Source: Candidatus Gastranaerophilales bacterium (GTDB lineage Bacteria; Cyanobacteriota; Vampirovibrionia; Gastranaerophilales; Gastranaerophilaceae). Taken from it: DNA of 64,000 nt. Below the pieces are notes generated by a model. The model searched no databases. It was not told the origin of the DNA and was given only the letters and a program-made list of their open reading frames with translations. The stretch spans positions 282 to 64,281 of the forward strand of contig CALVEN010000007.1 of assembly GCA_944326585.1 (NCBI GenBank), in the 5' to 3' direction. The translations under genes and the position numbers were made by a program. Below are positions 15,793 through 63,860 of the stretch, piece after piece. Positions within the stretch are counted from its first letter, which is position 1; each line of letters begins with the position of its first letter.

Positions 15793-15926
15793 GTAGACAG
15801 GACAAGGGTTTCGGCGGTATTGGTTTAGTAAAGTTACTAAGATACTATGGCACTAAGGCACTAAGAAGTAACATTCGTCATGGTAAGGCGGATCAATATA
15901 GTTGTATTCGCAGGGAACCTGTCATC

Positions 15927-20307: not shown

Positions 20308-20414
20308 TCCATTACCAGTATAACTCGTTTTTGAAAGTATTTCAAGAATGATATCAAGAAATATGATTAGAATTTGGGATATATAGAAATTGTACTGCGC
20401 GCCGTAGACGGCGT

Positions 20415-21342
20415 ATCTACAATAGTAGAAATTTAGTATAGGTATTAAACCGGCAATTATACAATGCACTGCGGTGGCGATCTACAATAGTAGAAATTTA
20501 ATATAGGTATTAAACTCGTGGAGTAAATCAACGTGCTTGCCCATCTACAATAGTAGAAATTTAATATAGGTATTAAACAAATAGAATCATCAAAAGGCAC
20601 CTTTTAATCTACAATAGTAGAAATTTAATATAGGTATTAAACATGGTTCGTCTGCCTTATATTCGCTTCGGATCTACAATAGTAGAAATTTAATATAGGT
20701 ATTAAACTTCAAGACCGCCAAACATGCCCAAAATATCTACAATAGTAGAAATTTAATATAGGTATTAAACATTGCGTCAAACCTTGGCAACGGCAAATCT
20801 ACAATAGTAGAAATTTAATATAGGTATTAAACAGGAAGATTATGAACAACAAGAAGAATAATCTACAATAGTAGAAATTTAATATAGGTATTAAACAAAA
20901 AATCATGACAATAATACACGCTTTATCTACAATAGTAGAAATTTAATATAGGTATTAAACATCAATTTTGCAACAGCAAGTATCAGTGATCTACAATAGT
21001 AGAAATTTAATATAGGTATTAAACATGACAAGATATGAAGATAGTTTCGTCTATCTACAATAGTAGAAATTTAATATAGGTATTAAACAGCCGAAGCGAG
21101 CCTTCACACACTGGAGGATCTACAATAGTAGAAATTTAATATAGGTATTAAACGAGGCTATGGTAGTTTCTGGCGATGTATCTACAATAGTAGAAATTTA
21201 ATATAGGTATTAAACAAATGAATGCATATCTTGATACGGCGGAATCTACAATAGTAGAAATTTAATATAGGTATTAAACAACTCTCGGGCATCAATGCTA
21301 CTTCATATCTACAATAGTAGAAATTTAATATAGGTATTAAAC
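20415..21342 (-). CRISPR. Type V-A CRISPR array, 15 repeats and 14 spacers
   Basis: 36-nt repeat, minus-strand reading GTTTAATACCTATATTAAATTTCTACTATTGTAGAT. This carries the Cas12a crRNA handle AAUUUCUACU-AUU-GUAGAU. Repeat starts on the + strand: 20415, 20480, 20543, 20607, 20672, 20735, 20797, 20861, 20925, 20989, 21053, 21118, 21180, 21244, 21307. Spacers are 26-29 nt. The leader-distal repeat (20415-20450) has one substitution. Confidence 0.97.
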
Positions 21343-21479
21343 CCTTAGAAGGTAATTTTTACCTATTTTTGGATATTTTATTGTCAAAGTACGACATATT
21401 TGGTTATATTTCATCTCATTTAATACCTATATTTATAATTTTTTTATATTAAGACTCAGGTTTGTACAAATCTAGTAAA
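21343..21479 (-). promoter_or_regulatory. CRISPR leader
   Basis: AT-rich 137 nt between the cas2 stop and the first repeat. The degenerate repeat is at the opposite end of the array. Confidence 0.75.
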
Positions 21480-21755
21480 CTAATCTACTATTATTATATC
21501 ACTTTCTTCATTTTTTAAAAAGCCATATTTAGAAATTTTACAATTTTCACTTGTTTCTATTATTAAAACACTATCAGTTTGTTTAAATAAATTTTTAAAA
21601 ACACTATCTATTTCATTTTTTATAATATCTAATAATCGTTTGCTATTTTGTATTTTATATACAGAAAATTGCATTCGGTTCCCGTATTTTCGTAAAAATT
21701 TTGAAAATTGTGTTCTTAATTTATCATCCGCTATATCATAACTTACTAATATCAT
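21480..21755 (-). CDS. cas2: CRISPR-associated endoribonuclease Cas2
   Basis: MILVSYDIADDKLRTQFSKFLRKYGNRMQFSVYK is a canonical Cas2 N-terminus. 4-nt overlap with cas1. Confidence 0.92.
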   Translation of the reverse strand: MILVSYDIADDKLRTQFSKFLRKYGNRMQFSVYKIQNSKRLLDIIKNEIDSVFKNLFKQTDSVLIIETSENCKISKYGFLKNEESDIIIVD

Positions 21756-22710
21756 AAGACCGCCTTTGGGAATTTATTTATATCATCATCTTTCATAAAC
21801 CATCTGTAATATTGTTGTATAAAATCAAAAATATTTTCTTTATAATTCAATATTTCTTCTAAAATTTGACAAACAAAATTGTTGCTGTCTTTCCAATCTA
21901 ATTGATATTGTTCTTTATGTTGTGTAAATTTATAATTTTCTATTTGTTTTAAATTTATCATTTTCCTTATTTTATAATCCACAATAGGTCTAAATGGTTC
22001 TATAATATCGCATACTAAAGATTTTCTTTTATAAAATTCTTTATGTAAATTACCTTTATAAATGTCAAAACCGTATATGTTTAATATTGCTTCTATATAA
22101 TTAAATAATACAGTATACCCTATATCTAAAAGTAAATTTATTTTATCTCTTTTTACTCTCGGCTGGCGTCCCTGCCAATCAAAAGGTTTAAACATCCTAT
22201 TAAAATAAATTTTTGCACATGTTCCCTCAATGCCCATAATTTCGTAATTATTATAATCAGACTTTGATAATTTATTTATTGAATCATTTAATTTTTTTAT
22301 TCCGTCTTTAAATTCTTTATCTCTTAATTTCTTTAAAAAATTTCTTTGATTAGATATTTTATTTATAATCAATTGCTTCGCAATTTCTTCACTGCGAGTT
22401 GTTATATATTGTTTTTCATGAAGTAAAAAATTACCTTCCAATACAAAATTTATTGTTGAGTAAACTTTAAAACCGGGTGTAAATAATACTATTGAAAATC
22501 CAAATTTTTTGCTCCTTGAAATTATTCCGCTTGTTAAGGTAATACCACCAACTATAAAAAGTGCAAATAAATTATAGCAACTTAATTGAAATTTAATTTT
22601 ATCTTCTTTGTCAAAGATTACAACATTATCATTTTTGAAGGAAATTTTGTCCCTTCATGCGTAAAGACAATTATAACTTTTTTCTCTAAAAAATCTGGTT
22701 TGGTCAGCAT
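21752..22710 (-). CDS. cas1: CRISPR-associated integrase Cas1, interrupted by a 1-nt frameshift near codon 23
   Basis: ATG 22710 overlaps the cas4 stop (ATGCTGA) and encodes MLTKPDFLEKKVIIVFTHEGTK. The -1 frame continues ISFKNDNVVIFDKEDKIKFQLSCYNLFALFIVGGITLTSGIISRSKKFGFSIVLF... into the track ORF 21752..22441. One extra A in the A4 run at 22645-22648 would give a 319-aa Cas1. Confidence 0.88.
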
Positions 22711-23264
22711 AATAAACTCCTGTCACAGCTTGGTTCATATATACAATTTTTACATTTGTCTATATTTTGTGCTTTAAATGTATGAATATCAAAATCGTGA
22801 ATATCCTTGATTAACTTTCGGAATTTGTTATCAGTTTCTTGGTCTTCTTTAGGGAGTTTGATGTCATAATTTTTATTATCTTTAATACTGTGAAATCTTA
22901 TTTTTTTAACTTCATAACCCATCTCAATTAATGCATAATATTGTGCATATAATTGAAATACATAACCGTCGTATATTTTTATTATTTTATTCTTTCGTTC
23001 GGTTAAAATACCTGTTTCTATATCAAATGTATCAATCTTTCCGGCAATATTAAATTCTGAACAAAATATGTTTATTCCCTGTAAAATAGTTTTTTTATCC
23101 GAATATAATTGTTTGTCAATTGTCTTATGAGCATTAGTTCCTGAAGTTTGTTTTGTTGATTGATACACAGATTTTTCTAATGTCCCGTATAACTTATGAA
23201 AATAAATTGATACGGGACAAAAGATAAAATCATTTAGATATGAGATTAATATTGTTTCTTCCAT
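22704..23264 (-). CDS. cas4: CRISPR-associated exonuclease Cas4
   Basis: N-terminal Cys (FCPVSIYF), RecB-like D...ERK core, C-terminal CKNCIYEPSC cluster. 1-nt overlap with cas12a (TAATG). Confidence 0.9.
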   Translation of the reverse strand: MEETILISYLNDFIFCPVSIYFHKLYGTLEKSVYQSTKQTSGTNAHKTIDKQLYSDKKTILQGINIFCSEFNIAGKIDTFDIETGILTERKNKIIKIYDGYVFQLYAQYYALIEMGYEVKKIRFHSIKDNKNYDIKLPKEDQETDNKFRKLIKDIHDFDIHTFKAQNIDKCKNCIYEPSCDRSLLC

Positions 23265-26200
23265 TATTCACTATCAAGTTCTTGTATATAAGTTAACCAG
23301 TCAGAATTTTTTATTGCATAAGCTATTTTTTCACCTCCATTTGTATGCTTTATACGATTAAGGATAATTAGTCCTTTTCTGGCTATATTATAAGCTCCGT
23401 TCGCGTCAGCATTTTGAGGCAAAGAATTATCACAACATCTTGAATCAAAGAAAAATCCTTTTTTATTTTTTATCGGTGATAATATATAATCTTTTTCGTT
23501 ACCTGTAATACTATTTCTTAATTGTACTAAAAGCTTAAATAAAATTCCAAAACCATTAAATCCGTCTTTTTCGGCAACTGCATTAAAGAATTTTGTATCC
23601 GCCTTGTCAAGTATTTCATTTTTTATGTTTTGATAATCTATATTATATTTATCAAATAAAATTTGAAATTCCTTGGTTAAATTTACGGTAATATTATCCC
23701 ATTCATTATTCTTCTTAGGATTTCGGAATGTTCGTATTCTGTCACCGTATGTACAAAGAGTCCATTCAGTTCTGTTTCCGGAAGATTTATCACTGAAATT
23801 TTTATAATCAAAATTAAATTCAAAATAATTTTCTTGATTATTAAATTTTATAAAATTAAATTTTTTAATAAATTCTTTATCAACTTTTTTTAAATCAAAT
23901 AAATTTACAAAACCCGTAGTCGGATCAATTTTACTCGTCCACACTGCAGGAATATAAAATATTATTCCATTTTGTTTTGTACTATTTATTTCTTTTGTTG
24001 CAAGCTGGTATGCATTCATCAATCCGCCCTGTTCAAATTTGTTTTGAATTGATTTATCAACAAGATAACTTAGTTTATCAATTAATTTTGTTTCAAATTT
24101 ATCATATACGGATTTTTCGACTTTTTTTCTTGAATTTTTAAAGCCGCTATTTAAATCTTCCAGTACTATAATGGCATTGTATTTGAACATTAAACGGGTA
24201 AGTTCATGCACAACCTGACTCATATATCCTTCTTTTAATTCTTTTATGTTTTGAATAGTACCCCACGATTTTCTATTGGCATCTCTTTCGGCCTCTTTTC
24301 TTTCGAGTAAATCATGGTAATTTGTATTTTCGATTATATTTAAAGAACGTTGTTCAATAATTTCACCGTTCATGTTGATAACGCTTATGTATAGAAGATG
24401 TCTTTCGCCTCTATCAATACCTATAATGTGAATATCATCAGAGTTTTTAATTTCATTGTTTGTAAAATCATTTAATTTGTTTATGTTTTGTGCTTTAAAA
24501 TTCAATGTAATCGGAACATGGAACTGAAATTTATCCAATGTAAATCTTTTATCTTTGATTAAATCATATTCAAAAGTACTGTATTTTTTAGGATTATCAG
24601 GGTTTTTATTTTCAATGGGTTCATTTTTAGGATGAGTTACTTTTGTTTCAATACTCTTTTTTCTGTAGAAAATTTCCGCTCCGCCGTTTAATTGATATAT
24701 GACATCTTTTAAGTTGTCTGCATCAAATAAGGCTCTCCAATACATTGTATGCAGATTCGGACGACCTTTTGAATATTTTGAAAAATCTTTGTTATAAATT
24801 TGGAAAAGATAAAGTTTACCTTCTTCTACAAGTTGATTTATGTAACTTTCAGAAATATTTGTAAAAGAAATTTTATATCCTTGCAGCTCAACTTCCCGAT
24901 AAAATTGACTTATATCTTGATATGTATTAGTATCCGAAAATTTAAAGTTGAATTTTGACCAGTCTTCATGCTTATTTATAGATTGTTTATAAAAATCTAT
25001 TAGTTCATGACAAAATCCTAAATCAAAATTTGCTCCTTTTTTATATAATCCTTTTTCATATTTGGCTATCAATTCATCGGAAGGATTAAATTCTTCTTTT
25101 CTGGAGTCTGAAAATAATACTTTTGGAAGCATTTTATTGGGACCGGGAAGCAATTTATATTCTATTTTTTCATAATATGATAAAGCTGACTCTTTATCAT
25201 TATTAATAAAAATTTTTCTGTTATTTTTATTGATAATTCCAATGTAATAATTTCCGTCTTTAATTAACAATGTCCCTAAATTTGCTTCTTCTTTATTCAA
25301 GTCCCAGCCGCTTAAAAAAGTAGGGCAATCAAAATTAAGTTTAAATTTTTCGACAGAATAAGGTTTTTTGGTTAAATAATTTCTTGTTTTGTTATAAACC
25401 GGAATTATTTCAGATAACAGTTCATAATTAAGCGAATTATAAAATTCTAAATCTGTTTCAATTGATTTGTTTTTCGGAATAAGGTGTTTTATAAGCATCT
25501 GTACATTTTTTAGTGAATCAAGGAAATCTTTTATTTTTTCAACTGCTTTTTTGTCTTGTATCAATTGTGTAGATGTTTCATCATATTCTTTTTCAAGTAT
25601 AGGTTTTACTTCAGAATAAGTTTTATCTATGAGTTTAAAATGTTCATTTATTTTATCTTTAAAATAGTTATAAAGTTTACCTTCATTGTTGCTATCTTTG
25701 TCATATTTTGATATAAGTTCTTCAATTCTATAAAGTGAAATTTCTTTAATTTTTTTTAATTCGTTATCTTTTTTGTCTGTATATTTTTCTGTTCCGTAAG
25801 CCAGTTTACCTTTATAATTATTGTCATATTCCATACTCAAAAGATAATTAATATAGCCCCAATCTTTGTAGATATTTTGGCTTATTCCTGTATTATCATC
25901 CAGAATTAAATAAATTTCTTCTGTATTATAGTTAGATATATTTTCAATAACATTTTCAAATGATTTATTTTCTATGAAAGCATCAGAAAATATTTTAAAA
26001 TAGTTATTAATGAGCTCAGTTACCTGTTTATCAGATTCAATCGTATTAAATTTAAAAGAAACAGAATTTGCATCACTTAAAATTTGCTTATAAAGCTGTT
26101 TTAATTTTGGGATTTTAATTTTTGTATCTTGAATATATTTATTTACTATTTCATTTATACCCTGTATTTTTTTATCATTTGTTGCTTTTCCGGAAATAAT

Positions 26201-26923
26201 AAGATTATATTCTTCAATTTGCCTTTGATTTAAAACATGTGTATAATTTTCAACGGTAGAAAAATATTCATCACAATCAAGTCCTAAATTTTGTTTTATT
26301 GTGTTTTTTATTTCAGGAATATTTTCTGAAATTTTATTAAATGCTTTAATATTCTTTAAATAAATAGGCAGATTTTCATTAATTAACCTGTAAGCTATAG
26401 ACGTATGTTTTTCTTCATTTGAATACATATTTTTTCGGTTTGTATCAAAACCTGAAAAATACGTTGTGAATTTTTCAAACACTTTTATTTCTTCAAGGAT
26501 TTCATTGTTGTTTTTATAATATTCTTGTAAATTTTTATTAATCATGTCTTTTCCAAAAAGAGTATTATATTTGGAATTCTTAGTAAATCTATCGGAAATT
26601 TTTTGACGTAATAATTTTTCTATACTTGAAAATTCTTTTTCTTCTTTTTCAGATAAATTTTGGCGGTTAAAAAATTCTGTATATTGTATTAATAAACATT
26701 TAAAATTTTCATCATTAAAATTATCCAAACATTCATTAATGAAATATTTATGATATTCATCACAATATTTTTTAATTTTTTGATATAATATCGCCTTTTT
26801 TTCATCTTCTTTTAAAATATATTCCGCAAAATACTCCTTTGTTTTTCCAATCGGAATAAGCTCAAATCTTAAAGTTTTTGAAACTTTAAATAAATTGTGA
26901 AAACAGTCATAAAAATTTTTCAT
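23264..26923 (-). CDS. cas12a: Cas12a (Cpf1), type V-A effector, 1219 aa
   Basis: N-terminus FKVSKTLRFELIPIGKT. RuvC-I IGIDRGERHLLY, RuvC-II IVLEDLNSGFK, RuvC-III DADANGAYNIARKG. AGGAG lies 6 nt before the ATG. The repeat type matches. Confidence 0.95.
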   Translation of the reverse strand: MKNFYDCFHNLFKVSKTLRFELIPIGKTKEYFAEYILKEDEKKAILYQKIKKYCDEYHKYFINECLDNFNDENFKCLLIQYTEFFNRQNLSEKEEKEFSSIEKLLRQKISDRFTKNSKYNTLFGKDMINKNLQEYYKNNNEILEEIKVFEKFTTYFSGFDTNRKNMYSNEEKHTSIAYRLINENLPIYLKNIKAFNKISENIPEIKNTIKQNLGLDCDEYFSTVENYTHVLNQRQIEEYNLIISGKATNDKKIQGINEIVNKYIQDTKIKIPKLKQLYKQILSDANSVSFKFNTIESDKQVTELINNYFKIFSDAFIENKSFENVIENISNYNTEEIYLILDDNTGISQNIYKDWGYINYLLSMEYDNNYKGKLAYGTEKYTDKKDNELKKIKEISLYRIEELISKYDKDSNNEGKLYNYFKDKINEHFKLIDKTYSEVKPILEKEYDETSTQLIQDKKAVEKIKDFLDSLKNVQMLIKHLIPKNKSIETDLEFYNSLNYELLSEIIPVYNKTRNYLTKKPYSVEKFKLNFDCPTFLSGWDLNKEEANLGTLLIKDGNYYIGIINKNNRKIFINNDKESALSYYEKIEYKLLPGPNKMLPKVLFSDSRKEEFNPSDELIAKYEKGLYKKGANFDLGFCHELIDFYKQSINKHEDWSKFNFKFSDTNTYQDISQFYREVELQGYKISFTNISESYINQLVEEGKLYLFQIYNKDFSKYSKGRPNLHTMYWRALFDADNLKDVIYQLNGGAEIFYRKKSIETKVTHPKNEPIENKNPDNPKKYSTFEYDLIKDKRFTLDKFQFHVPITLNFKAQNINKLNDFTNNEIKNSDDIHIIGIDRGERHLLYISVINMNGEIIEQRSLNIIENTNYHDLLERKEAERDANRKSWGTIQNIKELKEGYMSQVVHELTRLMFKYNAIIVLEDLNSGFKNSRKKVEKSVYDKFETKLIDKLSYLVDKSIQNKFEQGGLMNAYQLATKEINSTKQNGIIFYIPAVWTSKIDPTTGFVNLFDLKKVDKEFIKKFNFIKFNNQENYFEFNFDYKNFSDKSSGNRTEWTLCTYGDRIRTFRNPKKNNEWDNITVNLTKEFQILFDKYNIDYQNIKNEILDKADTKFFNAVAEKDGFNGFGILFKLLVQLRNSITGNEKDYILSPIKNKKGFFFDSRCCDNSLPQNADANGAYNIARKGLIILNRIKHTNGGEKIAYAIKNSDWLTYIQELDSE

Positions 26924-28439: not shown

Positions 28440-28835
28440 TGGTGGAGACGGTGGGACTCGAACCCACGTCCAAAATGGACCAACATAAACCTCTACGTGT
28501 GTAGATACTCATTTTCTCGGCTGATTCAGGAAAGTATCACTACCCTTAAATCAGCCAAAGTATTTTTTTCGGAAATACTTAACCTTTAATGGTTATCTTG
28601 ATACGCCTACCATCATCAACGTACTGCGTCTTGCATAAGTGGACCCCAACAGCCGGCAAGCTGGGCTATTGAAGTGGCTGACTGCGTCTTACGCAGCAAG
28701 AGCGTATGCTCTTGAAAAATCAGCTTTAATTACGTTGTCTTTAGCATTTAATTTGCTATGCTCGTTGATAACCGAGAACAGCGCTCGGACACGCAGCTTA
28801 TATCAATCATCATCCTGTCAAATCCGGACGTCCCC
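28440..28835 (-). ncRNA. ssrA: tmRNA (SsrA), one-piece
   Basis: 5' GGGGACGTCCGGATTTGACAGG. 3' GACGTGGGTTCGAGTCCCACCGTCTCCACCA. Acceptor stem GGGGACG/CGUCUCC with G3:U. Tag reading frame AKDNVIKADFSRAYALAA* (GCT AAA GAC ... GCT GCG TAA). Confidence 0.93.
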
Positions 28836-37968: not shown

Positions 37969-38063
37969 TGATATAATAAACCCAAAACAAGGAGAGTGTT
38001 GATATGACTAGTTTGAACAACGGGGGGGGGCGACTCCTCCAGGTACAGATAGCAAGGTTTTAG
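37969..38063 (+). promoter_or_regulatory. Pilin-family expression cassette 2
   Basis: TGATATAAT 37969-37977; GGAGAG 37991-37996; ATG 38004; G9 38022-38030; stop TAG 38061-38063. Short frame encodes MTSLNNGGGRLLQVQIARF*. Confidence 0.7.
38022..38030 (+). repeat. G9 homopolymer
   Basis: Nine G. Position equivalent to the other four tracts. Confidence 0.95.
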
Positions 38064-38239
38064 GCGGTATTGGTTGTGTAAAGTTACTAAGATACTATGG
38101 CACTAAGGCACTAAGAAGTAACAGAAAAGTAGGTCGGCATTACCATGCCGACAGAAAAGTTTACTGTCGGGTTAGTAACCCTGACCAACGCGTTACAGAA
38201 AGAATTGACACAACCCCTGAAACAAATTATAATTCTAAT

Positions 38240-39079
38240 ATGATAAACTATAAATCAGAAAACAAAAACGTGAGAGAAGTTCAGTGTAACCACACCCCTC
38301 ACTCTACTCACTCGACTCAAGCAAAACGTGTCGCGTTTACTCTGGCGGAGGGTGCTACGCACGTAGACATGTCAGACAACATTCGTCGTGTGGCATTCAC
38401 TCTGGCGGAAGTTTTGATAACCCTTGCCATAATAGGTATTGTGGCAGCTGTGACAATTCCGACGTTAATAACAAAGTATCAAGAGAAGCAGACAGTAACA
38501 AGGTTTAAGTGGATATATTCAACATTAGCGAATGCTTTCACTATGGCTGTTGCGGAAAACGGGGCGCCTGAAACTTGGGATTTGAATAGTGCTGAAGATA
38601 TGGCAAATATTTTGTCAAAATATATGAGAATTAGTGAAAAATGTTATAATACCGCTGGTTGTTTGCCTCCGGATTTAAATATTGTTGCATTGACTGGCGA
38701 AATGCGTTATACATTACCCGGCAATGCAAATTATGTAAAATCACGTTTTAATAACGGCATAAGCCTTATGTGGTTTGAGCCTCATAAAGGGTGCAGTTAT
38801 TCTTATATTGATACTGATGGCAACCAAATAGATGTAGAAAACAGTTGCGGCTCTTTGTACGCTTTTATCTCAACGAATCGTACAAACAGATATGGTCTTG
38901 ACCATTTTGTTTTTACAGTTACACCGAAGGGAATATTGCCGGGCGGTTATGATTATAATGACAGCAATATAAAGCGGAATTGCACAAAAAATTGGACATC
39001 CGATGGTAATACAAATGGTGCTACCTGCGGGGAATGGATAAGACGCTGGGGTAATGCGGATTATTGGTATGATAATTAA
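38240..39079 (+). CDS. Prepilin-type N-terminal cleavage/methylation-domain protein, paralog 38
   Basis: RRVAFTLAEVLITLAIIGIVAAVTIPTLITKYQEKQT. The frame is open upstream to the G9 tract. Internal ATG 38369 gives MSDNIRRVA|FTLAE. Confidence 0.85.
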   Translation: MINYKSENKNVREVQCNHTPHSTHSTQAKRVAFTLAEGATHVDMSDNIRRVAFTLAEVLITLAIIGIVAAVTIPTLITKYQEKQTVTRFKWIYSTLANAFTMAVAENGAPETWDLNSAEDMANILSKYMRISEKCYNTAGCLPPDLNIVALTGEMRYTLPGNANYVKSRFNNGISLMWFEPHKGCSYSYIDTDGNQIDVENSCGSLYAFISTNRTNRYGLDHFVFTVTPKGILPGGYDYNDSNIKRNCTKNWTSDGNTNGATCGEWIRRWGNADYWYDN

Positions 39080-43440: not shown

Positions 43441-43510
43441 TGGTATATTATAGAAAACAAGGAGAGTGCAAATGGAAGATATGACTAATTTGAATAACGG
43501 GGGGGGAGCG
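43441..43510 (+). promoter_or_regulatory. Pilin-family expression cassette 3 (in frame)
   Basis: TGGTATATT 43441-43449; GGAGAG 43461-43466; ATG 43472 and 43481; GGGGGGGGAG 43499-43508. There is no stop afterwards. Confidence 0.7.
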
Positions 43511-44608
43511 ACTCTTCTAAGTAGGCAGGACAAGGGTTTTGACGGTATATTTTGGGAAAAGTTACTAAGATACTATGATACTAAGGCAGTAAGAAGTAAC
43601 AGAAAAGTAGGTCGGCATTACTATGCCGACAGAAAAGTTTACCGTCGGGTTAGTAAACCCGACCTACAAGAGAATATGGCTCAGAATGACAAGAATATCA
43701 TCCCTCGCCCCTTGGGGAGAGGGTGTCACGAAGTGACAGGAGAGGGGCTAAGTGACAAAAATGTGAGCAAAGCTCACAGAAAACGCTTAGTGCCTTACTG
43801 CCTTAGTAACTTAGTATCTTCACAAAAAGCCGCGTTTACCTTAGCAGAGGTTTTGATAACCCTCGGCATAATCGGTATTGTGGCAGCGATGACAATTCCG
43901 ACACTTATTACGAATTATCAGGAAAAACAAACAATTTCCAAATTACAAAAAGTCTACGCGTCTTTAAAGAATGCATTTGAACTTGCAAAAGTTGAGCATG
44001 GTGATTATGAAACCTGGTCGTGGAATCAGATTCCTGTAACCAATGGCGCGCGAACACAATATTTTTGGGAAACATATATTTTCCCGCATTTAAAGATTGC
44101 TAAAAAATGTTTCCCGATAACAACGGAATGTGTCGCAGAGGGTATTACAAAATTGAATGGTACGGCTGAATCTGTTGTTACATCTACACATGGTGCTTTT
44201 GTTTTATATGACGGTACATATGTTTATACGTGGGCTGGAGGTTCCGGTTTTCATCCGCATATTTGGGTGTATGCTGATATCAACGGTGAGGCAAAGCCAA
44301 ACGTGGTAGGCAAAGATATATTTACTATGTTTTTCTCGCCAAAAAATCCAGGGAATAAAATCGGCTCGTTTGATGACGATAATAATTTTGTTGACTCAGG
44401 AAAATTATCAACCCCTGCTTACGGATTAAGTTTGTATGGAGATGTAAACGGGGTTACCGTTGAAGATCTTATGGATCCGAATTTTGTTCTGGAAACTGAC
44501 ACAGGTGCCAAGCAAAAACATTGTTGTACCACAGAAGGCACAGGGTATATGTGCGGTGCGGCAATAAAATTAAACGGCTGGAAATTTCCCGACGGTTATC
44601 CCAGATAA
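43472..44608 (+). CDS. Prepilin-type protein, paralog 43; the whole long leader is in frame with the cassette ATG
   Basis: Single ORF MEDMTNLNNGGGATLLSRQDKGF...QKAAFTLAEVLITLGIIGIVAAMTIPTLITNYQEKQT...ADINGEAKPNVVGKDIF. Confidence 0.85.
   Translation: MEDMTNLNNGGGATLLSRQDKGFDGIFWEKLLRYYDTKAVRSNRKVGRHYYADRKVYRRVSKPDLQENMAQNDKNIIPRPLGRGCHEVTGEGLSDKNVSKAHRKRLVPYCLSNLVSSQKAAFTLAEVLITLGIIGIVAAMTIPTLITNYQEKQTISKLQKVYASLKNAFELAKVEHGDYETWSWNQIPVTNGARTQYFWETYIFPHLKIAKKCFPITTECVAEGITKLNGTAESVVTSTHGAFVLYDGTYVYTWAGGSGFHPHIWVYADINGEAKPNVVGKDIFTMFFSPKNPGNKIGSFDDDNNFVDSGKLSTPAYGLSLYGDVNGVTVEDLMDPNFVLETDTGAKQKHCCTTEGTGYMCGAAIKLNGWKFPDGYPR
43499..43506 (+). repeat. G8 homopolymer followed by A-G (an interrupted 10-nt tract)
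   Basis: GGGGGGGGAG occupies the position where the OFF copies have G9. Confidence 0.95.
43517..43872 (+). repeat. 356-bp leader cassette, apparently identical to 51052..51407
   Basis: A by-eye base-by-base comparison found no mismatch between the two intervals. The flanks diverge at once on both sides. Confidence 0.8.
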
Positions 44609-46368: not shown

Positions 46369-49300
46369 ATGTTAAATATTGATTGTTTATCCGGTGAAAA
46401 ATTTTTAGAATACAGAGATTATGTTAAAAAATCATGGTCTTTTGCGGTTACGGGGTTAACTTCGCTTTTAAGGCTTTTGTTAGTCAAAAATGCCCGTGAC
46501 TATTCTAAAAAGAAGATTTTACTTGTTACATCAACCGAGCAGAATGCATTAAAGTTTCAAAACGATTTTAAAAGAGGTTTTGATATTGATGCCGCGTTAA
46601 TTCCTTTTCAAAATATTTCAATGTATGAAGGAGTTTCGCCGAATTTGTATGAATATTTTGAGCAGATAAAAATTTTGCGGCAAAAACCTGATTTAGTTAT
46701 TTGTCCCGTTAAAACCTTGCTTGAAAAGTTTCCGGATGAAGAATTTTTTGAGAAAAATTCTTTAAAAATAAAAGTAGGCGATGAGGTTAATTTAAAAGAA
46801 TTAAGTCAAAAGCTTGTTAATCTCGGATACAAACGCGCCACTATGGTCAGTGATATAGCTGAATTCAGCATAAGGGGCGATATTGCGGATATTTTTTCAC
46901 TGGACGATAACCCTGTAAGAATTGAATTATGGGGAGATGAAGTTGTAGACATCAGGTATTTTAACAATGAAACTCAAAAATCAGTCGAAAAGGCAAAAGA
47001 GATTGAGATTTTACCTGTATATAAATTTGTGCTTGATGAAAACAGTCCGAAACTCAATGAAGAAGACGAAGGGTATTTTGAAGGGATTGAAGTTTATCAG
47101 AATTATTTTAATGACAACCTTGTCGGGGTTTTGGATTATTTAAAAGATTATATAATTGTTTTTGACGAAACGTCCGAAATTTACTCAAAATATGAATTTG
47201 TTGCGCAGAATTTGGAAAAACAGCTTGAAGAAAATTCGAAACTTGAGCTTTTAAAACCGTTAAAGGGCAAAAATCATTTTACTTTTGAAGAATTTTTGAG
47301 AAAAACGTCTTATTTTGTAAAAATCGGTCTTAATAATTTTATAGACGGCGAAATGGATGATATTATTGAATTTAATGCCATGCCGCTTCAAAATTTTGAG
47401 GCGAATTTAGATGCAATAGCCGATTTTATAAAAGAACATAGCCCTCTGGGAGAGGGAAGAATTTCAACGCAAGGAACTAGCGTTAGAAATTCGGGTGAGG
47501 GTGGATACAAAATAATTGTTGCAACGGATTACCCTGAACGTGTCAAGCAAATTTTGAGTGAGCGGGAAATATTTGACGTTGAATATACTGAAAGCCTTGC
47601 AAGCGCAGGATGTATTCTTGAGGATTGCAAAACAATTGTAATGACCGATAGAGAGCTGTTTAATAAACGTTCCAAAGAAATCACCGCGGCAAAACGTTCA
47701 TATTACAAGGAAAAACCGGAATTTATCGAAAATATAAATGATATTCAAGAAGGAGAATACGTTGTTCATACAATTCACGGGGTCGGGATTTACAGAGGGC
47801 TTACCCAGCAGGAGATTGACGGGCAGCTGAAAGATTACCTGACAATCGAATATGCTGCAAAAGACAGGCTTCACATCCCTGCAGAACAAATTAACATGCT
47901 TGTCAGATACCGCGGCTCCGGAAATATCAAGCCGAAACTTTCCAGAATGGGCGGTAAAGATTGGGAAAACACTAAAGCCAGGGTTAAAAAAGAAGTTGAA
48001 GCTGTTGCGTATGACCTTTTAAGGCTTTATGCAAGACGAAAAATGCAAAAAGGATTTCAGTTTTTGCCTGATACCACATGGCAGGTGGAAATGGAAGAAG
48101 CCTTTGAATTTGTTGAAACTCCCGATCAAATGCGTGCAATAAACGAAGTCAAGGCTGATATGGAAAGTGATGAGCCTATGGACAGACTAATTTGCGGGGA
48201 TGTGGGTTTTGGTAAAACTGAAGTTGCAATGAGGGCAATTTTTAAAGCCGTAACTTCCGGCAAGCAGGTGGCGGTTGTTGTTCCTACGACTATTCTTGCG
48301 CTTCAGCATTTTCAAACAATGTCTGAAAGGTTTAAGCCTTTTGGAGTTCATGTTGAATTGCTTTCAAGGTTCAGGAGTAAAAAGGAGCAGAAAGACACCG
48401 TAAAAAATCTTGCAACCGGCTCTTGTGACGTGGTAATCGGAACCCACAGGCTTTTGCAGGACGGAATTGTATTCAAAGATTTGGGGCTTCTGGTAATTGA
48501 TGAAGAACACAGATTTGGAGTAAGACATAAGGAAAAACTTAAACAACTGCGTGAAAATATTGATATTATAACGATGTCGGCAACGCCTATTCCCAGAACC
48601 CTTTATATGTCGTTATCTGGAATTAAAGATATGTCGGTTATTAATACTCCTCCAAAAAACAGGCTTCCTATAAAAACCTATGTCGGCGAGTGGAATGAAA
48701 ATATGGTTAAAAATGCCATTATCCATGAGCTTGACCGCGAAGGACAGGTTTTTTATCTTTATAATCGTGTTGAAACTATTGAAGAATTCAAATTTCATCT
48801 GCAAAAACTTGTCCCCAATGCCCGAATTGCCGTAGGACACGGACAGATGGACGAAAAACAGCTTGAAGAAGTGATAGTCGATTTTGCAAACCATGAATAT
48901 GATATTCTTCTTGCAACAACAATTATTGAAAACGGAATTGATATTCCTAATGCAAATACAATGATTATCCATGATGCCGACAGATTCGGACTTGCGCAGT
49001 TGTATCAATTAAGAGGCCGTGTCGGTCGTTCCCAAAGACAGGCTTATTGCTATTGTTTTTACAGAAAAAGTAAAGAGATTACAAAAGACGCAGTACACAG
49101 ATTAAAAGCCATAAAAGAGTTTACAACACTCGGAAGCGGTTATCAAATCGCATTAAGGGATGTCGAGATAAGAGGGGTCGGGAATATTCTCGGCACCAAG
49201 CAGCACGGCCATATGATAAATGTCGGTTTTGATACATATTGTCAGCTTCTTGAAGAAACTGTTCAGGAGCTGCAAGGTCATTATGTGGAAAAATCCGAAC

Positions 49301-50973: not shown

Positions 50974-51055
50974 TGATATAATAAACCTAAAAAGAAGGAG
51001 AGCTAAAATGGAAGATATGACTAGTTTTAATAACGGGGGGGGGCGACTCTCCTAA
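50974..51055 (+). promoter_or_regulatory. Pilin-family expression cassette 4
   Basis: TGATATAAT 50974-50982; AAGGAGAG 50996-51001+; ATG 51008 and 51017; G9 51035-51043; TAA 51053-51055. Short frame encodes MEDMTSFNNGGGRLS*. Confidence 0.7.
51035..51043 (+). repeat. G9 homopolymer
   Basis: Nine G. Position equivalent to the other tracts. Confidence 0.95.
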
Positions 51056-51407
51056 GTAGGCAGGACAAGGGTTTTGACGGTATATTTTGGGAAAAGTTAC
51101 TAAGATACTATGATACTAAGGCAGTAAGAAGTAACAGAAAAGTAGGTCGGCATTACTATGCCGACAGAAAAGTTTACCGTCGGGTTAGTAAACCCGACCT
51201 ACAAGAGAATATGGCTCAGAATGACAAGAATATCATCCCTCGCCCCTTGGGGAGAGGGTGTCACGAAGTGACAGGAGAGGGGCTAAGTGACAAAAATGTG
51301 AGCAAAGCTCACAGAAAACGCTTAGTGCCTTACTGCCTTAGTAACTTAGTATCTTCACAAAAAGCCGCGTTTACCTTAGCAGAGGTTTTGATAACCCTCG
51401 GCATAAT
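51052..51407 (+). repeat. 356-bp leader cassette, apparently identical to 43517..43872
   Basis: See 43517..43872. Confidence 0.8.
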
Positions 51408-52137
51408 TGGGATAGTAGCAGCAATGACAATCCCGACGATATCGCGTAATATTCAGCATGCCGTACTAAAAAATCAATTCAAGAAATTCTACAGCACTTT
51501 CTGGCAGGCGGTAATCGGTATACAGACAAAAGGAGGCAGACCTGTACAGTGTTATTACTGGGATGGCGCAAATCCATATACGGGCAAATGCACCCCGACA
51601 TGTGATGAAGATGAAAAAAATCAATACGGTAACTGTACTGTATATAGGTGTGCGGAAACAGGAGAACCCATTCCGACGGATATAAACGGAAAGTCTTCGG
51701 AGTGCAGTGATTTTTATGAGGAATTGTTTTTAAAAACATTAAAGACAACAAAAATATGTAAAGATAAGGCATATGAACAGGGGTGCCTGCCGGAAGACTT
51801 CAGAGGTGTGGATGTTGTAAAATCAGAACAAAATCCGGATAAAGAATATGACCCTGCAGGAATTTTTGCTGATTCCCCTGTGAAAAATAATTATCCTGTC
51901 TTTGTGTTAGCTGACGGAACATATATTGTAGGTTATGCTCGTTATTTAGCGGGTTTGCCTATTTTTGTCGTGGACATAAACGGGACTAAAGGTCCAAACA
52001 AATGGGGTTATGATATATTTTCTTTTAGCTTGAGGGGTAATGCGCAAACCGGAATAAATAAATTGAATAGTGCAACTTATGCAACGGAAAAAGGCGGGAA
52101 AACTTTTCAGCAGATGCTGGACGAATGTTTTAAATAG
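51211..52137 (+). CDS. Prepilin-type protein, paralog 51
   Basis: QKAAFTLAEVLITLGIIGIVAAMTIPT, then a mature domain unrelated to paralog 43 but homologous to the partial gene at 1..546. The frame is open upstream to the G9 tract. Confidence 0.85.
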   Translation: MAQNDKNIIPRPLGRGCHEVTGEGLSDKNVSKAHRKRLVPYCLSNLVSSQKAAFTLAEVLITLGIIGIVAAMTIPTISRNIQHAVLKNQFKKFYSTFWQAVIGIQTKGGRPVQCYYWDGANPYTGKCTPTCDEDEKNQYGNCTVYRCAETGEPIPTDINGKSSECSDFYEELFLKTLKTTKICKDKAYEQGCLPEDFRGVDVVKSEQNPDKEYDPAGIFADSPVKNNYPVFVLADGTYIVGYARYLAGLPIFVVDINGTKGPNKWGYDIFSFSLRGNAQTGINKLNSATYATEKGGKTFQQMLDECFK

Positions 52138-58922: not shown

Positions 58923-59948
58923 CTAACTGCAAGAATGTTTGCCGTCCCAGGATAAATCATCACAATCCCAGTAATCCATATTGCCGTTATAAATTACCCA
59001 TGCAGTACATGTTACATTATTTCCCGTATAAGTTTTGTTCAGACAGGCATTCTCAAAAGATGAACCGATATATGTTCTGTTCGGCATTCCTTGCGGTAAA
59101 ATCCCATCGCGATATATATCAAATTTAAATACGTCTTTTCCGATTTGATTTGGTGATGCGCTTCCGTTTAAATCTACGGTAATGGTTCCGCAATTTCTAA
59201 AATACAATTCACGTTCTTCAGTGGAATTTTTATATGCTTGACACCATACTTCTGCAGCGTTGTCGCCGTTCGCCCCTAAAAATTTTATTGAAGTGCCGTT
59301 ATTGAGTATAAAGGTTTTTTTCATTCTTCCCGGATTGTCCAGATGAGATTTATTCAGCTTGTAGTAATCTTTACCCCAGCAGGCTGTATATATTTTTTCA
59401 TAATTGCTTGCTTCACATGTTTTTAAAATTTTAAGAAATTGCGGCATAATTTTATTGTATATCGGTTCTATATCATATCTATTATTTGCTCCCCAAAAAT
59501 TAATTGGTCCATATTCCTTAATTGCCATATCAAATGCACTGTTCAGGATACTGTAGGTGTGTTTTAATTTTGTTACGAATACTTTTTCTTGATAATTCGC
59601 AACTAGTATCGGAATAGTCATAGCAGCCACAACACCGATAATTGCCAGAGTAATTAGAACCTCCGCCAAAGTAAAGGCGGGTTTTTTAGAAGATACTAAG
59701 TTACTAAGGCAGTAAGGCACTAAGAATTTACTGTGAGCTTCGCTCACTAATTCTTCCCTCCCGCCCTTGAGGGGGAGGGTTAGGGTGGGGGGAATTTTTT
59801 GAGATCCTTCGGCTATCGCCTCAGGATGACCTGTAAAATTACACAGAGACCCCGAATGTTGTCGTGCCTCAGGCACCTCAGGATGACATGATACTTCCGT
59901 CATCCCGGACTTGTTCCGGGATCTTATTTTATCTATTAGATCCCGCAA
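58923..59948 (-). CDS. Prepilin-type protein, paralog 59
   Basis: KKPAFTLAEVLITLAIIGVVAAMTIPILVANYQEK...VDLNGSASPNQIGKDVFKF. The frame is open upstream to the C11/G11 tract. Confidence 0.85.
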   Translation of the reverse strand: MRDLIDKIRSRNKSGMTEVSCHPEVPEARQHSGSLCNFTGHPEAIAEGSQKIPPTLTLPLKGGREELVSEAHSKFLVPYCLSNLVSSKKPAFTLAEVLITLAIIGVVAAMTIPILVANYQEKVFVTKLKHTYSILNSAFDMAIKEYGPINFWGANNRYDIEPIYNKIMPQFLKILKTCEASNYEKIYTACWGKDYYKLNKSHLDNPGRMKKTFILNNGTSIKFLGANGDNAAEVWCQAYKNSTEERELYFRNCGTITVDLNGSASPNQIGKDVFKFDIYRDGILPQGMPNRTYIGSSFENACLNKTYTGNNVTCTAWVIYNGNMDYWDCDDLSWDGKHSCS

Positions 59949-60100
59949 TAAATGCGGGATGACGTATAAGGATTGTCCAAGCTCAAGTGTAATGTCCTGC
60001 CTTTGGCAGTGCGGGATGACGTTTATAGTTTGTAGATTTATTTTTTCACAAAGATTTTTATTTTTTTGAGATGCTGAAACCAGTTCAGCATGACCGGAGG

Positions 60101-60197
60101 TTAAGCTAACTGCCCCCCCCCCCTGAATGAAAAGTAGTTGTTATGCGTATTTGCGCCCATTTTTTAACCTCCAAGTATTCTGTTACTTATTATATCA
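60101..60197 (-). promoter_or_regulatory. Pilin-family expression cassette 5 (minus strand)
   Basis: Minus strand: TGATATAAT (60197-60189); GGAGG (60172-60168); ATG 60160; G11 (60123-60113); TAA 60103-60101. Short frame encodes MGANTHNNYFSFRGGGQLA*. Confidence 0.7.
60113..60123 (-). repeat. G11 (C11 on the + strand) homopolymer
   Basis: Eleven consecutive C on the + strand. Confidence 0.95.
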
Positions 60198-61514: not shown

Positions 61515-62708
61515 ATGCCGAAGTTAGCGGAACAATATGACAGAAGGCAATTTTATGCGGACGTAAAGCCTACTTACCCCAGAATAAGTGAGGTGCGTCC
61601 TTTAAGAACGTACGGGAAACCCGCTTATACTCCAAGACCTGTTCATTTGCAGGTTAATAAAAAGAAGGTCAGACGAAATAATATTTTGCACAAAATTATT
61701 TCTACGGTTTTCTTTACGCTGATTGCCGTTTTTGTTTTGCCTCTTGGATTTCATAGAGTAACAATGTCATTTTTGCACGGTTCTCCTTATCCTGAGATTA
61801 AAACGGATTATCATGCTCTGAGGTTTCCGACAACAGATTATCTGGCAAATGATTTGTTATTTAACCGGCGTTATTTGACGGGTGTTGAGATTAAAAAACC
61901 CCAAATGCAAAAGATTTCCGAAACTTACAGGATGGGCGATTTGGAAATAAGTCTTAAAAATTTAATGGCTCAATATCCTTCCATTTATCCGTCAATTTAT
62001 GTCTGGCAGTATGAAACCGAAAAGTTTGCAGATATTAATGCGTCCGAAATTTTTTCCGCCGCAAGTATTATTAAACTTCCTGTTTTGATTGAACTTTTCA
62101 AATCTGTTGAGGCCGGGCAAGTGTCGCTTGATGATAAAATGATCCTGACGGATTATTATAGAGCCGAAGGTTCAGGCAGTTTGCAGTTCAAGGCGGAAAA
62201 TTCCAACTGGACTCTTGATGATCTCGCAAGAATTATGGTGACGGAATCTGATAATTCCGCAACCAATATGATTATGTCAAAAATCGGTTCAATGGTTGAT
62301 GTTAACAGAGCCATAAGAAGCTGGGGTTTAAACAGCACATATGTACAAACATGGCTTCCCGATTTGACTGGAAATAACCATACAACCGCGCGCGATTTGG
62401 GAACAATGCTTTATAATATTGATAATAACCCGAATTTTTTGGATATATCTTCACGGGAAAAAATATTTGATTATATGGGGCATGTTCATAATAACCGTTT
62501 AATTCAGGCAGGGCTTGGACCGGGCGCATTATTTATGCACAAAACAGGCGACATAGGCAAGATGCTTGGTGATGCCGGAATTGTTTTTGCGCCGAACGGG
62601 AAAAAATATATTGTCGTAATCCTTGCTAACCGCCCGCATAATTCTGTTCTGGGTAAAGATTTTATCGTAAAAGCGTCCGAAATTATCTACAATTATATGG
62701 TGAGATAA
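61515..62708 (+). CDS. Membrane-anchored serine hydrolase, class A beta-lactamase family
   Basis: N-terminal TM helix. SxxK (ASIIK), SDN (ESDNSA), KTG (HKTGDIG). Confidence 0.75.
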   Translation: MPKLAEQYDRRQFYADVKPTYPRISEVRPLRTYGKPAYTPRPVHLQVNKKKVRRNNILHKIISTVFFTLIAVFVLPLGFHRVTMSFLHGSPYPEIKTDYHALRFPTTDYLANDLLFNRRYLTGVEIKKPQMQKISETYRMGDLEISLKNLMAQYPSIYPSIYVWQYETEKFADINASEIFSAASIIKLPVLIELFKSVEAGQVSLDDKMILTDYYRAEGSGSLQFKAENSNWTLDDLARIMVTESDNSATNMIMSKIGSMVDVNRAIRSWGLNSTYVQTWLPDLTGNNHTTARDLGTMLYNIDNNPNFLDISSREKIFDYMGHVHNNRLIQAGLGPGALFMHKTGDIGKMLGDAGIVFAPNGKKYIVVILANRPHNSVLGKDFIVKASEIIYNYMVR

Positions 62709-63658
62709 TGCTGAAAGATCTTCTGGAAGCGAAAAATTGTTTCAAACTTGTTTGCGGTGCCGGAAATGAGGACGCCAAGGAAGTTGAAAAACTCGTGGCG
62801 GTTTATGCAAAAGCAGGATGCAAATTTTTTGATTTGTCGGCATCTGAGGAGATTATTGATGCGGCAAGATGCGGGCTTGAATTTGCCGGAGTTAATGATG
62901 CTTATTTGTGTGTTAGTGTCGGGATAAAAAATGATCCGCATGTCAATAAAGCCGTTGTGGATTATGAAAAATGTATTTCCTGTTACTCTTGCGATAGTGT
63001 ATGTCCTCAAGGCGCCATAAAGTTTGCAAAAGTTAAAAAATATAAATGTATCGGCTGCGGCAGATGTGCAAAAATTTGCCCAAAAGGTGCAATATCTTAT
63101 GTTTCTGAAGAAAAAGATTTACGTGAAGTTTTGCCGCCTCTTATCTCAAAAGGAATTGATTGTATTGAATTTCATGCAATGGGACTAAATGATGATGAAA
63201 TTTGGCAAAAATGGACTTATATAAACGAAATTTACACAGGAATTTTAAGCCTCTGCACAAGCCGCGGCAAATTAAGCGACGAAAAACTTGTTGAAAGAGT
63301 TAAAAAACTTACCTTTATCAGAGAGCCTTATACGACGATTGTTCAGGCTGACGGATTCCCTATGAGCGGCGGGAAAGATGATTTTAAGACAACGCTGCAG
63401 GCTGTTGCAACCGCTGAAATTATTCAGAATGAAAATTTGCCCGTATATCTTTTACTCTCAGGCGGTACAAATTCCAAAACCGCGGAACTTGCTAAAATGT
63501 GCGGAATTAATGCAAACGGAGTTTCTGTAGGCTCTTTTGCAAGAAAAATTGTTAAAAAATACATTGATCGCGAGGATTTTTTGCGTAATGAATTGGTGTT
63601 CAATGATGCGGTTAATGTCGCTAAAGAATTAATTAGCAAAAGCAATATGCAGAATTAA
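62708..63658 (+). CDS. 4Fe-4S dicluster-domain protein, LdpA-like
   Basis: FKLVCGAGNED N-terminus. CISCYSCDSVCP and CIGCGRCAKICP. The resemblance to cyanobacterial LdpA is from memory only. Confidence 0.5.
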   Translation: MLKDLLEAKNCFKLVCGAGNEDAKEVEKLVAVYAKAGCKFFDLSASEEIIDAARCGLEFAGVNDAYLCVSVGIKNDPHVNKAVVDYEKCISCYSCDSVCPQGAIKFAKVKKYKCIGCGRCAKICPKGAISYVSEEKDLREVLPPLISKGIDCIEFHAMGLNDDEIWQKWTYINEIYTGILSLCTSRGKLSDEKLVERVKKLTFIREPYTTIVQADGFPMSGGKDDFKTTLQAVATAEIIQNENLPVYLLLSGGTNSKTAELAKMCGINANGVSVGSFARKIVKKYIDREDFLRNELVFNDAVNVAKELISKSNMQN

Positions 63659-63668
63659 TGTCAGGCAA

Positions 63669-63860
63669 AACCCTCACCCGAATTTCTAAACTCGCTGGTG
63701 CTCGTCAAGAAATTCTACCCTCTCCCTCTGGGAGAGGGGTGGCTGAGCCACGACATCATGTTTGATAATTTTGGTATGCCTATTCATGTCTTTGTTAGGG
63801 GTGCCAAAGGCACGACAATACAATGTCATTCTGAGCGCCAGCGAAGAATTCCGGTTGCAG
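63669..63860. repeat. Cluster of GC-rich hairpin modules (intergenic)
   Basis: CCCTCACCCGAATTTCT...AGAAATTCTACCCTCTCCCTCTGGGAGAGGGG; GTGGCTGAGCCAC; GTGCCAAAGGCAC; GTCATTCTGAGCGCCAGCGAAGAAT. The same module types occur in the pilin leaders, mfd and 57535-57681. Confidence 0.7.

Follow-up and report, generated by a model that had tools for sequence, protein, structure and literature searches.

The mfd gene of a Candidatus Gastranaerophilales bacterium carries within its reading frame a 60-nt segment that is very probably a copy of a non-autonomous dispersed repeat, retained as a near-neutral passenger in the encoded Mfd protein. The gene lies on a 64,000-nt stretch of contig CALVEN010000007.1 (assembly GCA_944326585.1), which will be referred to as the window and to which all nucleotide positions refer unless another locus is named. 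An original prediction made from the letters of the window had described a palindromic repeat inside mfd that leaves the frame uninterrupted. This was confirmed, and the limits of the element were refined from 47441-47504 to 47442-47501.

The in-frame repeat copy of mfd

The gene mfd encodes the transcription-repair coupling factor and is a conserved housekeeping gene that is not generally essential. In the window it is intact (Table 1). Pfam matches were obtained for UvrB_inter (residues 132-220), CarD_TRCF_RID (460-514), DEAD (584-745), Helicase_C (784-888) and TRCF (983-1066), yielding the expected order of UvrB-interaction module, RNA-polymerase-interacting domain (RID), superfamily-2 translocase and TRCF C-terminal domain, and solved Mfd structures in the PDB match the window open reading frame (ORF) with E values of 2e-201 to 8e-194. 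The repeat copy is oriented antisense to the gene and, together with flanking bases, encodes residues 358-379 (SPLGEGRISTQGTSVRNSGEGG). Excising exactly the 60 nt of the element (...AAA GAA CAT AG/.../T GGA TAC AAA) leads to the peptide KEHSGYK, which resembles orthologues with an empty site, e.g. P0083 (KEKSGYK). The two sides of the junction have at most 1 nt in common and there is thus no target-site duplication at mfd.

The window contains one further copy of the family, which is intergenic and begins 13 nt past the stop codon of the ORF at 62708-63658. Two blocks are shared exactly by both copies. The first block, CCCTCACCCGAATTTCTA, which is followed by (A), occurs exactly twice in the window, at 47484-47501 on the minus strand and at 63671-63688 on the plus strand; GAAATTCTnCCCTCTCCC also occurs exactly twice, at 47448-47465 (minus) and 63709-63726 (plus). 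Chance matches expected for the two blocks amount to 0.07 and 0.09, respectively, and two matches were found in none of 100 dinucleotide-preserving shuffles. These two exact blocks bear out the earlier claim that the mfd segment is the reverse complement of a second element, for which positions 63672-63726 had been noted; the element was extended to 63671-63739 and now takes in the 3′ arm of its second hairpin, which was absent from the earlier limits. Beyond these two, no family copies were detected in the window with up to three mismatches allowed, and no intrinsic-terminator signature was found at the intergenic copy.

Architecture and folding of the repeat family

Members of the family are built from A(C/A), the C-box CCCTCACCC, a first stem-loop (SL1), T(A/T) and a second stem-loop (SL2) composed of CCCTCTCCC, 3 to 4 nt and GGGGCGAGGG(G). 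SL1 is an AT-rich 12-bp hairpin standing on an invariant GAATTTC/GAAATTC base, and SL2 is a GC-rich hairpin in which CCCTCTCCC pairs with GGGGCGAGGG. The family is ~66-78 nt long, with single lengths ranging from 65 to 83 nt and a mode of 70, so that the mfd copy lies below all of these, and the mean GC content is 51% compared to 36% for the genome. The conserved part has a sharp start at position -2 and stops with the G-run of SL2, and the flanks are unconserved; these sharp limits identify the element as a discrete unit. The invariance of the C-box across copies is given by the construction of the search. The termini, 5′ CCCTCACCC and 3′ GGGGCGAGGG, represent an imperfect 9-nt inverted pair, yet the 3′ box pairs with the internal CCCTCTCCC.

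SL1 is found in two registers. Type A contains a bulged T and ends in ...TTGAAATTC, type B contains an A.A mismatch and ends in ...AAGAAATTC. The mfd copy belongs to type A and the intergenic copy to type B, and owing to these different sub-types the two are not recent copies of each other. The mfd copy falls into a sub-group (L020, L038, L044, L054) that is characterised by the loop TCGTTCC and by CCCTCTCCC-AAAGGT-AGAGGG as SL2; the SL2 of the mfd copy is 6 nt shorter than that of the closest members L054, L020 and L044, which carry CCCTCTCCCAAAGGTAGAGGG. A short form of the element is devoid of SL1 (CCCTCGCCCCTTGYGGGAGAGGG-ACT-GAGGGAGAGGG).

When treated as single-stranded DNA, the mfd copy folds on either strand into two side-by-side hairpins (-14.6 kcal/mol) with z-scores of -6.2 and -6.8, and none of 200 shuffled sequences was as stable. 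Comparison of the copies clearly demonstrated that the SL1 hairpin is maintained by compensatory changes. Pairing is found in 99.4% of the SL1 cells of 48 type A copies, and 57 cells are changed on both sides compared to 17.2 ± 2.9 after shuffling (0 of 500 as high); registers slid by 1-3 columns yielded at most 4. At the three inner SL1 pairs all four Watson-Crick types are present (e.g. GC 17, CG 10, UA 10 and AU 5 at one pair), and type B copies exhibit the same pattern of covariation. G.T pairs are nearly absent from the SL1 stems, which would be more in keeping with selection acting on DNA, or on both strands, than with selection on one strand of RNA. When RNAalifold was applied to an alignment of mixed types, only the invariant 7 bp were recovered. 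This weak outcome is explained by the fact that the sub-types pair in different registers, and splitting by sub-type revealed the covariation.

The SL2 loop is also a target of nested inserts of 60-200 nt with the ends TTGGATT...AAATCCGC (L040, L079, L085, L086, L114). They are located within ~300 nt downstream of the core; some of them look highly structured, and no Rfam match was obtained. In RUG14125 (L019, L029, L032, L039) and BRZ_GG bin1 (L067, L068, L097, L099, L115) the element is part of larger near-identical composite repeats with equal flanks for tens of bases on each side, often at contig ends, which suggests that these are recently amplified units that break assemblies.

Distribution of the family

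The original prediction had proposed a search for further copies of an 18-nt core. Scans of genomes and metagenomes, both requiring the exact 18-mer, detected the core in at least 118 stretches of GTDB species-representative genomes (one genome per species) and in at least 120 stretches of gut and rumen metagenomes. The named genomes among the matches listed are assigned to Gastranaerophilales, Melainabacteria, 'Vampirovibrio sp.' and 'Cyanobacteria bacterium UBA', and the rest are metagenome-assembled genomes (MAGs) from gut or rumen; the sole exceptions among the named matches listed are two contigs of 2.9 and 21 kb in Muribaculaceae MAG bins. By an arithmetic estimate, ~17 chance matches over all taxa are expected for an 18-mer in 596 Gb, and the clustering in one order shows that the matches are not due to chance. 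As far as sampled, the family is confined to Gastranaerophilales (Melainabacteria/Vampirovibrionia), and by this host range the window, too, is almost certainly from Gastranaerophilales.

Viral contigs and plasmids scanned for the 18-mer core contained no copies, and no vector is therefore suggested. An Rfam search with the window and ten element-bearing loci revealed no family for the element and matched only tmRNA. Peptide searches were of little use. A tandem 45-aa query resulted in nine candidates and one match, and a 30-aa peptide from the window produced one match (E = 9.5e-4) against 1.84 billion representatives. Since such short peptide queries lack power, the DNA pattern and ORF analysis were used for the census of host genes.

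The insertion site in Mfd orthologues

The 120 best Mfd homologues were compared. All 52 protein variants that are at least 99% identical to the window Mfd contain the insert, whereas the segment is missing from P0053, which is 97% identical, and from every orthologue that is more distant. The insertion is thus specific for a lineage, which had been the expectation from the sequence alone. The same 60-mer is present in seven further contigs of the species derived from other samples, with two synonymous differences only. In the next relatives, which are 97% to 89% identical at the protein level, only S-xEFNxx-G is found at the site. The locus L119 is 91-94% identical to the window in DNA and therefore represents a different species. 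In this nearest sister species, an unrelated-looking 18-nt extra, GCTGAATTTAATGACGGC (AEFNDG; L119 4075-4092), occupies the same Ser/Gly boundary. An 18-nt xEFNxx extra at this boundary is common to the whole clade, and the window clade is nested inside it in a neighbour-joining tree, which was calculated from protein distances without resampling support. More distant orthologues of 1106-1114 aa have nothing at the site.

In a sister clade that is ~80% identical, this codon boundary is occupied by short-form elements or other variants, and so is a second loop, which sits just after the UvrB-interaction domain. P0102 carries the same 37-nt short form (CCCTCGCCCCTTGYGGGAGAGGGACTGAGGGAGAGGG) in both loops, in both cases in frame (L122 ~1190-1230 and ~1640-1680), P0101 of the same clade has neither insert, and P0113 (L124) has still longer composite inserts resulting in a protein of 1196 aa. 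From this pattern, at least three separate events have occurred at the Ser/Gly boundary. The empty sites have no sequence motif in common, and the recurrent hits might be explained by permissive loops rather than by target specificity.

To judge constraint on the insert, 52 near-identical alleles were compared. Seven of the 22 insert residues are polymorphic compared to 4.9% of the other 1112 (Fisher p = 8e-5), and no other 22-residue window of Mfd is as variable. The changes (S to N, P to S, G to A, G to R, G to E, T to M and G to D) are mostly non-conservative and GC-to-AT. The insert is located outside every Pfam domain, within the region 210-412 that does not align to solved Mfd proteins. 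By its position, ~80 residues upstream of RID, it corresponds to D3 of E. coli Mfd, a region of low conservation (Deaconescu et al. 2006). In an AlphaFold2 model of poor overall quality, residues 358-380 form a coil with pLDDT (predicted local distance difference test) values below 50 between a helix (347-357) and a strand (381-385). The high polymorphism of the insert fits a tolerated passenger and not a selected module.

Copies in coding and non-coding sequence

For the coding census, 159 two-armed copies could be classified. Most of them, 142 (89%), lie outside long ORFs; nine (6%) are located in long ORFs leading into an N-terminus of the pilin type (FTLAEVLITLGIIG...), and eight (5%) in other long ORFs. 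In addition to mfd, in-frame copies were found in the genes for NagA (L054), in which a 66-nt insert adds ~22 residues compared to solved NagA structures, PanC (L168; within the Pantoate_ligase match, E = 6e-99), a class I fumarase (L233; within the Fumerase domain), an Fe-S/CCG oxidoreductase (L192; between the Fer4 and CCG domains) and a FolC-like Mur-ligase protein (L224), whose element has a degenerate right arm. The view that the family resembles the Rickettsia palindromic elements (RPEs) and tolerates in-frame insertions is supported by these genes. Three frames are used: an antisense frame (...GEGRIS..RNSGEG) in mfd, NagA and fumarase, the sense frame PSPEFL... in PanC and the FolC-like protein, and the sense frame TLTRIS... 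in the Fe-S protein.

On average ~2 of the 6 frames of a copy are stop-free and 36% of the lengths are multiples of 3, from which it follows that ~12% (about one in eight) of random intragenic insertions keep the ORF open. Purifying selection acting on random insertions would produce such a coding pattern, and no preference for coding sites is needed. The alternative put forward in the original prediction, that insertions into coding sequence are selected for, was not supported, as ~89% of the copies lie outside long ORFs and polymorphism within Mfd peaks in the insert.

Origin of the insert and rival explanations

We propose that a 60-nt copy landed in, or was copied into, a Ser/Gly codon boundary that probably corresponds to a helix-strand loop in the poorly conserved part of Mfd between the UvrB-interaction module and RID. 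The insert would be translated as 20 extra, weakly constrained residues rich in Gly, Ser and Glu, and it would persist by virtue of a length that is a multiple of 3, a stop-free frame and a permissive loop, presumably as a near-neutral passenger that slowly decays. The spread of the family might be catalysed in trans by an enzyme recognising DNA hairpins, by analogy with REP/RAYT (repetitive extragenic palindromic sequences and REP-associated tyrosine transposases) or with the single-strand transposition of IS200/IS605. This is the weakest step of the proposal, possible though in our view doubtful.

Several points weigh against this explanation. No filled/empty polymorphism is found within the species, so that mobility is deduced from the distribution and was not observed directly. 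The history of the site is more complex than an insertion at an empty position, as the window clade is nested among carriers of the 18-nt extra, and replacement or gene conversion must be invoked. That the insert is translated is something we infer. The AlphaFold2 model was built from a 26-sequence alignment, has a mean pLDDT of 55 and was used for local secondary structure only, and the requirement for an exact 18-mer skews the census towards well-preserved copies. A scan of all ORFs in 245 sequences (1.7 Mb) for HUH/Y1 transposase motifs, performed with regular expressions only and therefore weak evidence, found none.

Among the element-bearing loci, filled and empty sites could be compared between distant ones only, e.g. 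L075 and window 1335-1354. Target-site duplications were sought in 131 copies (k = 3-6, offsets 0-2), and the observed counts equal those of shuffled pairings. With this family-wide test being null, TATT/TATT at the NagA copy was rejected as a target duplication and is regarded as a coincidence. An intein, intron or recoding event was likewise rejected, as the element is too small, splice or cleavage motifs are missing and the frame is simply continuous.

The insert may alternatively have arrived by recombination, with a decayed relic, represented by the 18-nt xEFNxx extra, being overwritten by gene conversion from another genomic copy. The nesting of the window clade in a clade with the extra at the identical Ser/Gly boundary speaks for this, as do the GAATTT and the G-rich tail of the 18-mer, which are reminiscent of the element, and the lack of target-site duplications throughout the family (131 copies). 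However, the similarity between 18-mer and element is weak, no simple deletion of the 60-mer gives the 18-mer, conversion would have just a few bases of homology to work with, and the supporting tree has the limits mentioned above. We consider this route unlikely. It is quite improbable that the insert is an exapted module, i.e. that a flexible Gly-rich loop or an mRNA hairpin benefits Mfd, for instance by tuning autoinhibition or expression. Its fixation in 52 of 52 variants and in eight sampled contigs of the species, the repeated gain of inserts by the same loop in related lineages and the stable RNA fold (-21.3 kcal/mol, z -3.35) would be in line with a function; yet no 22-residue window of the protein is as polymorphic as the insert, changes such as G to R, G to D, G to E and P to S are non-conservative, the nearest species lack the insert, the sister-clade inserts vary in sequence and length, and 89% of the family lies outside long ORFs.

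A classical miniature inverted-repeat transposable element (MITE), derived by deletion from an insertion sequence (IS) and moved by the DDE transposase of the latter via terminal inverted repeats, would account for the small size, the many copies, the sharp ends and the imperfect 9-nt inverted termini (CCCTCACCC versus the reverse complement of GGGGCGAGGG). It would not account for 131 copies without target-site duplication, a GC-rich element without TA ends or two adjacent hairpins in place of one end-to-end stem, and no IS with matching ends was noticed in ~1.7 Mb of loci, for which no aimed search was made; altogether, such an origin is highly improbable. The notion that nothing mobile is involved and that the similarity reflects chance in low-complexity GC-rich sequence or an assembly artefact could appeal only to the short length of the element. 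It is refuted by the absence of two-copy matches from all 100 shuffles, by hundreds of copies with conserved architecture and by the presence of the same insert in independent assemblies from different samples.

Comparison with known repeat families

RPEs (Ogata et al. 2000, 2002; summarised in PMC2229807 and PMC10969869) are elements of 105-146 bp with one long stem-loop formed from paired ends and terminal inverted repeats of ~12 bp (PMC2229807), and 19 of 44 RPE-1 copies of R. conorii are located within ORFs. The Gastranaerophilales family shares with them the character of small hairpin-forming dispersed repeats that are non-coding by origin, occur in intergenic regions as well as in frame within housekeeping genes, seem to be tolerated rather than beneficial and are restricted to one bacterial lineage. 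It differs from them by about half the size (60-78 nt versus 105-146 bp), by two adjacent hairpins plus C-box instead of one end-paired stem, by being GC-rich in an AT-rich genome and by a lower coding fraction (~5% in conserved genes, ~11% with pilin-type ORFs, compared to 19/44). Common descent with RPEs is implausible given the host lineage, Gastranaerophilales, which belongs to a different phylum; shared ancestry is not indicated, no RPE sequences having been compared.

The MITEs that carry ORFs (Correia/NEMIS elements of 107 bp, ERIC/IRU, YPAL and the Anabaena MITEs; PMC2229807, PMC10969869) are likewise non-autonomous, multi-copy and mostly intergenic, with some stop-free frames and occasional in-frame fusions to host genes. 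In contrast to MITEs, the Gastranaerophilales family has no target-site duplication and no TA termini, is not A+T-rich and is shorter.

REP sequences are imperfect palindromes of 20-40 nt with a conserved GTAG head. Like REP/REPIN-RAYT systems and the bacterial interspersed mosaic elements (BIMEs) of E. coli (PMC3116915), the present family comprises short imperfect palindromes that are rich in GC, show compensatory changes in their stems, lack target-site duplications and cluster with other small repeats in intergenic mosaics, e.g. in L075, where GTAGG-headed hairpins flank the element. It is also mainly extragenic (89% of the copies outside long ORFs). Unlike REPs, it starts with A(C/A)CCCTCACCC and has no GTAG head, is longer and bipartite, and is also found inside genes; in the sampled loci, the regular-expression scan detected no RAYT-like gene. 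We consider REP/RAYT the most likely mechanistic analogue. REP/REPIN-like repeats with a GTAGG head and a palindrome (GTAGGTCGGCATTACTATGCCGAC ... GTCGGGTTAGTAAACCCGACCTAC, inverted orientation) were observed at window ~43606-43668 and in L075. These GTAGG-headed hairpins are separate repeats, found alongside the element in intergenic mosaics and also in the 5′ regions of pilin-like genes, and they suggest that a RAYT-type system may exist in these genomes.

Cyanobacterial small dispersed repeats (SDRs) of 21-27 nt and the MITE Nezha, the subjects of Elhai et al. 2008 and Zhou et al. 2008, reportedly enter genes as well as one another and leave no obvious duplications. The present family likewise shows nesting, with 60-200-nt inserts in SL2 loops, and cyanobacteria are the sister lineage of Melainabacteria.

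Full-text literature searches turned up no account of repeats of this kind in Melainabacteria or Gastranaerophilales. The family is a new RPE-like family in a new phylum-level lineage, representing a Rickettsia-like phenomenon rather than a novel kind of biology. The occurrence of 'selfish' palindromes in frame within housekeeping genes is said to have been introduced as a peculiarity of Rickettsia. Here, an unrelated family in free-living gut relatives of cyanobacteria does the same, which shows that in-frame palindromes follow generally from small stop-poor repeats and purifying selection and not from an intracellular lifestyle. For annotation and phylogenomics this means lineage-specific Gly/Glu-rich segments in conserved markers, many spurious small ORFs and broken assemblies. 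The Watson-Crick covariation together with the lack of target duplications provides a lead to the mobilising enzyme in a lineage without a cultured genetic system, and the recurrent hits in two Mfd loops map positions of the protein that tolerate insertions.

Pilin-like genes and other features of the window

Table 1. Coordinates of the repeat copies, their parts and other features of the window
Feature	Position	Strand	Evidence or remark
mfd (transcription-repair coupling factor), intact host gene, 1134 aa	46369-49773	+	ORF and translation, Pfam, PDB
Repeat element, 60 nt, antisense to mfd, in frame	47442-47501	-	exact core matches
C-box (CCCTCACCC on element strand), 5′ end of element	47493-47501	-	flank past position -2 unconserved
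Hairpin SL1, type A: GAATTTC-T-AACGC / loop / GCGTT-GAAATTC	47459-47492	-	DNA fold and covariation
Shortened hairpin SL2: CCCTCT-CCC-AGAGGG on element strand	47442-47456	-	fold and family comparison
Intergenic family copy, 69 nt, type B	63671-63739	+	exact block matches, fold
SL1 of intergenic copy, type B	63680-63715	+	
Full 9-bp SL2 of intergenic copy	63718-63738	+	
Pilin-like gene	15771-17087	+	poly-G G9 15772-15780
tmRNA gene	28440-28835	-	Rfam RF00023, 135.6 bits
Pilin-like gene	38012-39079	+	poly-G G9 38022-38030
Pilin-like gene	43454-44608	+	poly-G G8 43499-43506
Pilin-like gene	51034-52137	+	poly-G G9 51035-51043
Pilin-like gene	58923-60140	-	poly-G G11 60113-60123

Five pilin-like genes (AFTLAEVLITL...) are present in the window, with 111-195 stop-free codons upstream of the pilin motif that form a mosaic of small repeats. 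At the head of all five extensions there is a promoter-like site (TTGATATAAT), a ribosome-binding site (AAGGAGAG), an ATG and a poly-G tract. A continuous frame from the ATG into the pilin domain exists in the G8 copy (ATG 43473 to 44608) only, and in other strains the tract is different (G8 that lacks the following AG; G9). To judge from the nucleotide sequence, a paralogue family with an unusually long pre-sequence of ~117 aa seems to undergo slipped-strand phase variation, and phase variation at poly-G would imply that the repeat-built pre-sequence is translated.

With up to three mismatches allowed, no copy of the mfd-repeat family was detected in these five genes. Their 5′ regions contain related C-box/G-box hairpin modules, e.g. 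at 43702-43750, a module that is the same as the in-frame module of a sister-clade Mfd (PLVPCGRGCHKVTGEGE in P0100). The claim that the same family also supplies the pilin leaders thus failed for the window, where only related modules occur, and stood for other genomes, in which nine of the 159 copies are located in pilin-type ORFs. It is conceivable, if rather unlikely, that small repeats of Gastranaerophilales are a regular source of translated sequence, moved by an undescribed hairpin-recognising system that leaves no target-site duplications, with the ~117-aa pilin pre-sequences being switched by phase variation.

The GC content of the window is 36%, and the genes around mfd are arranged in the order grpE / pilin-like gene / aroA / mfd / surA-like. 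A type V-A CRISPR-Cas locus is located at 20402-26923 in a low-GC (25-28%) island. It comprises an array of 15 repeats (20402-21342), whose repeat ends in ...AATTTCTACTATTGTAGAT on the minus strand, as well as cas2, cas1, cas4 and a 1219-aa cas12a, all identified by Pfam and encoded on the minus strand. A perfect 26-nt inverted pair (TGTCATTCTGAGCGCCAGCGAAGAAT) is found at 16022-16047 and 63824-63849 and belongs to another dispersed family ('GTCATTCTGAGC...') that is present in many element-bearing loci; the region 63729-63853 of the window matches L089 at 89% identity.

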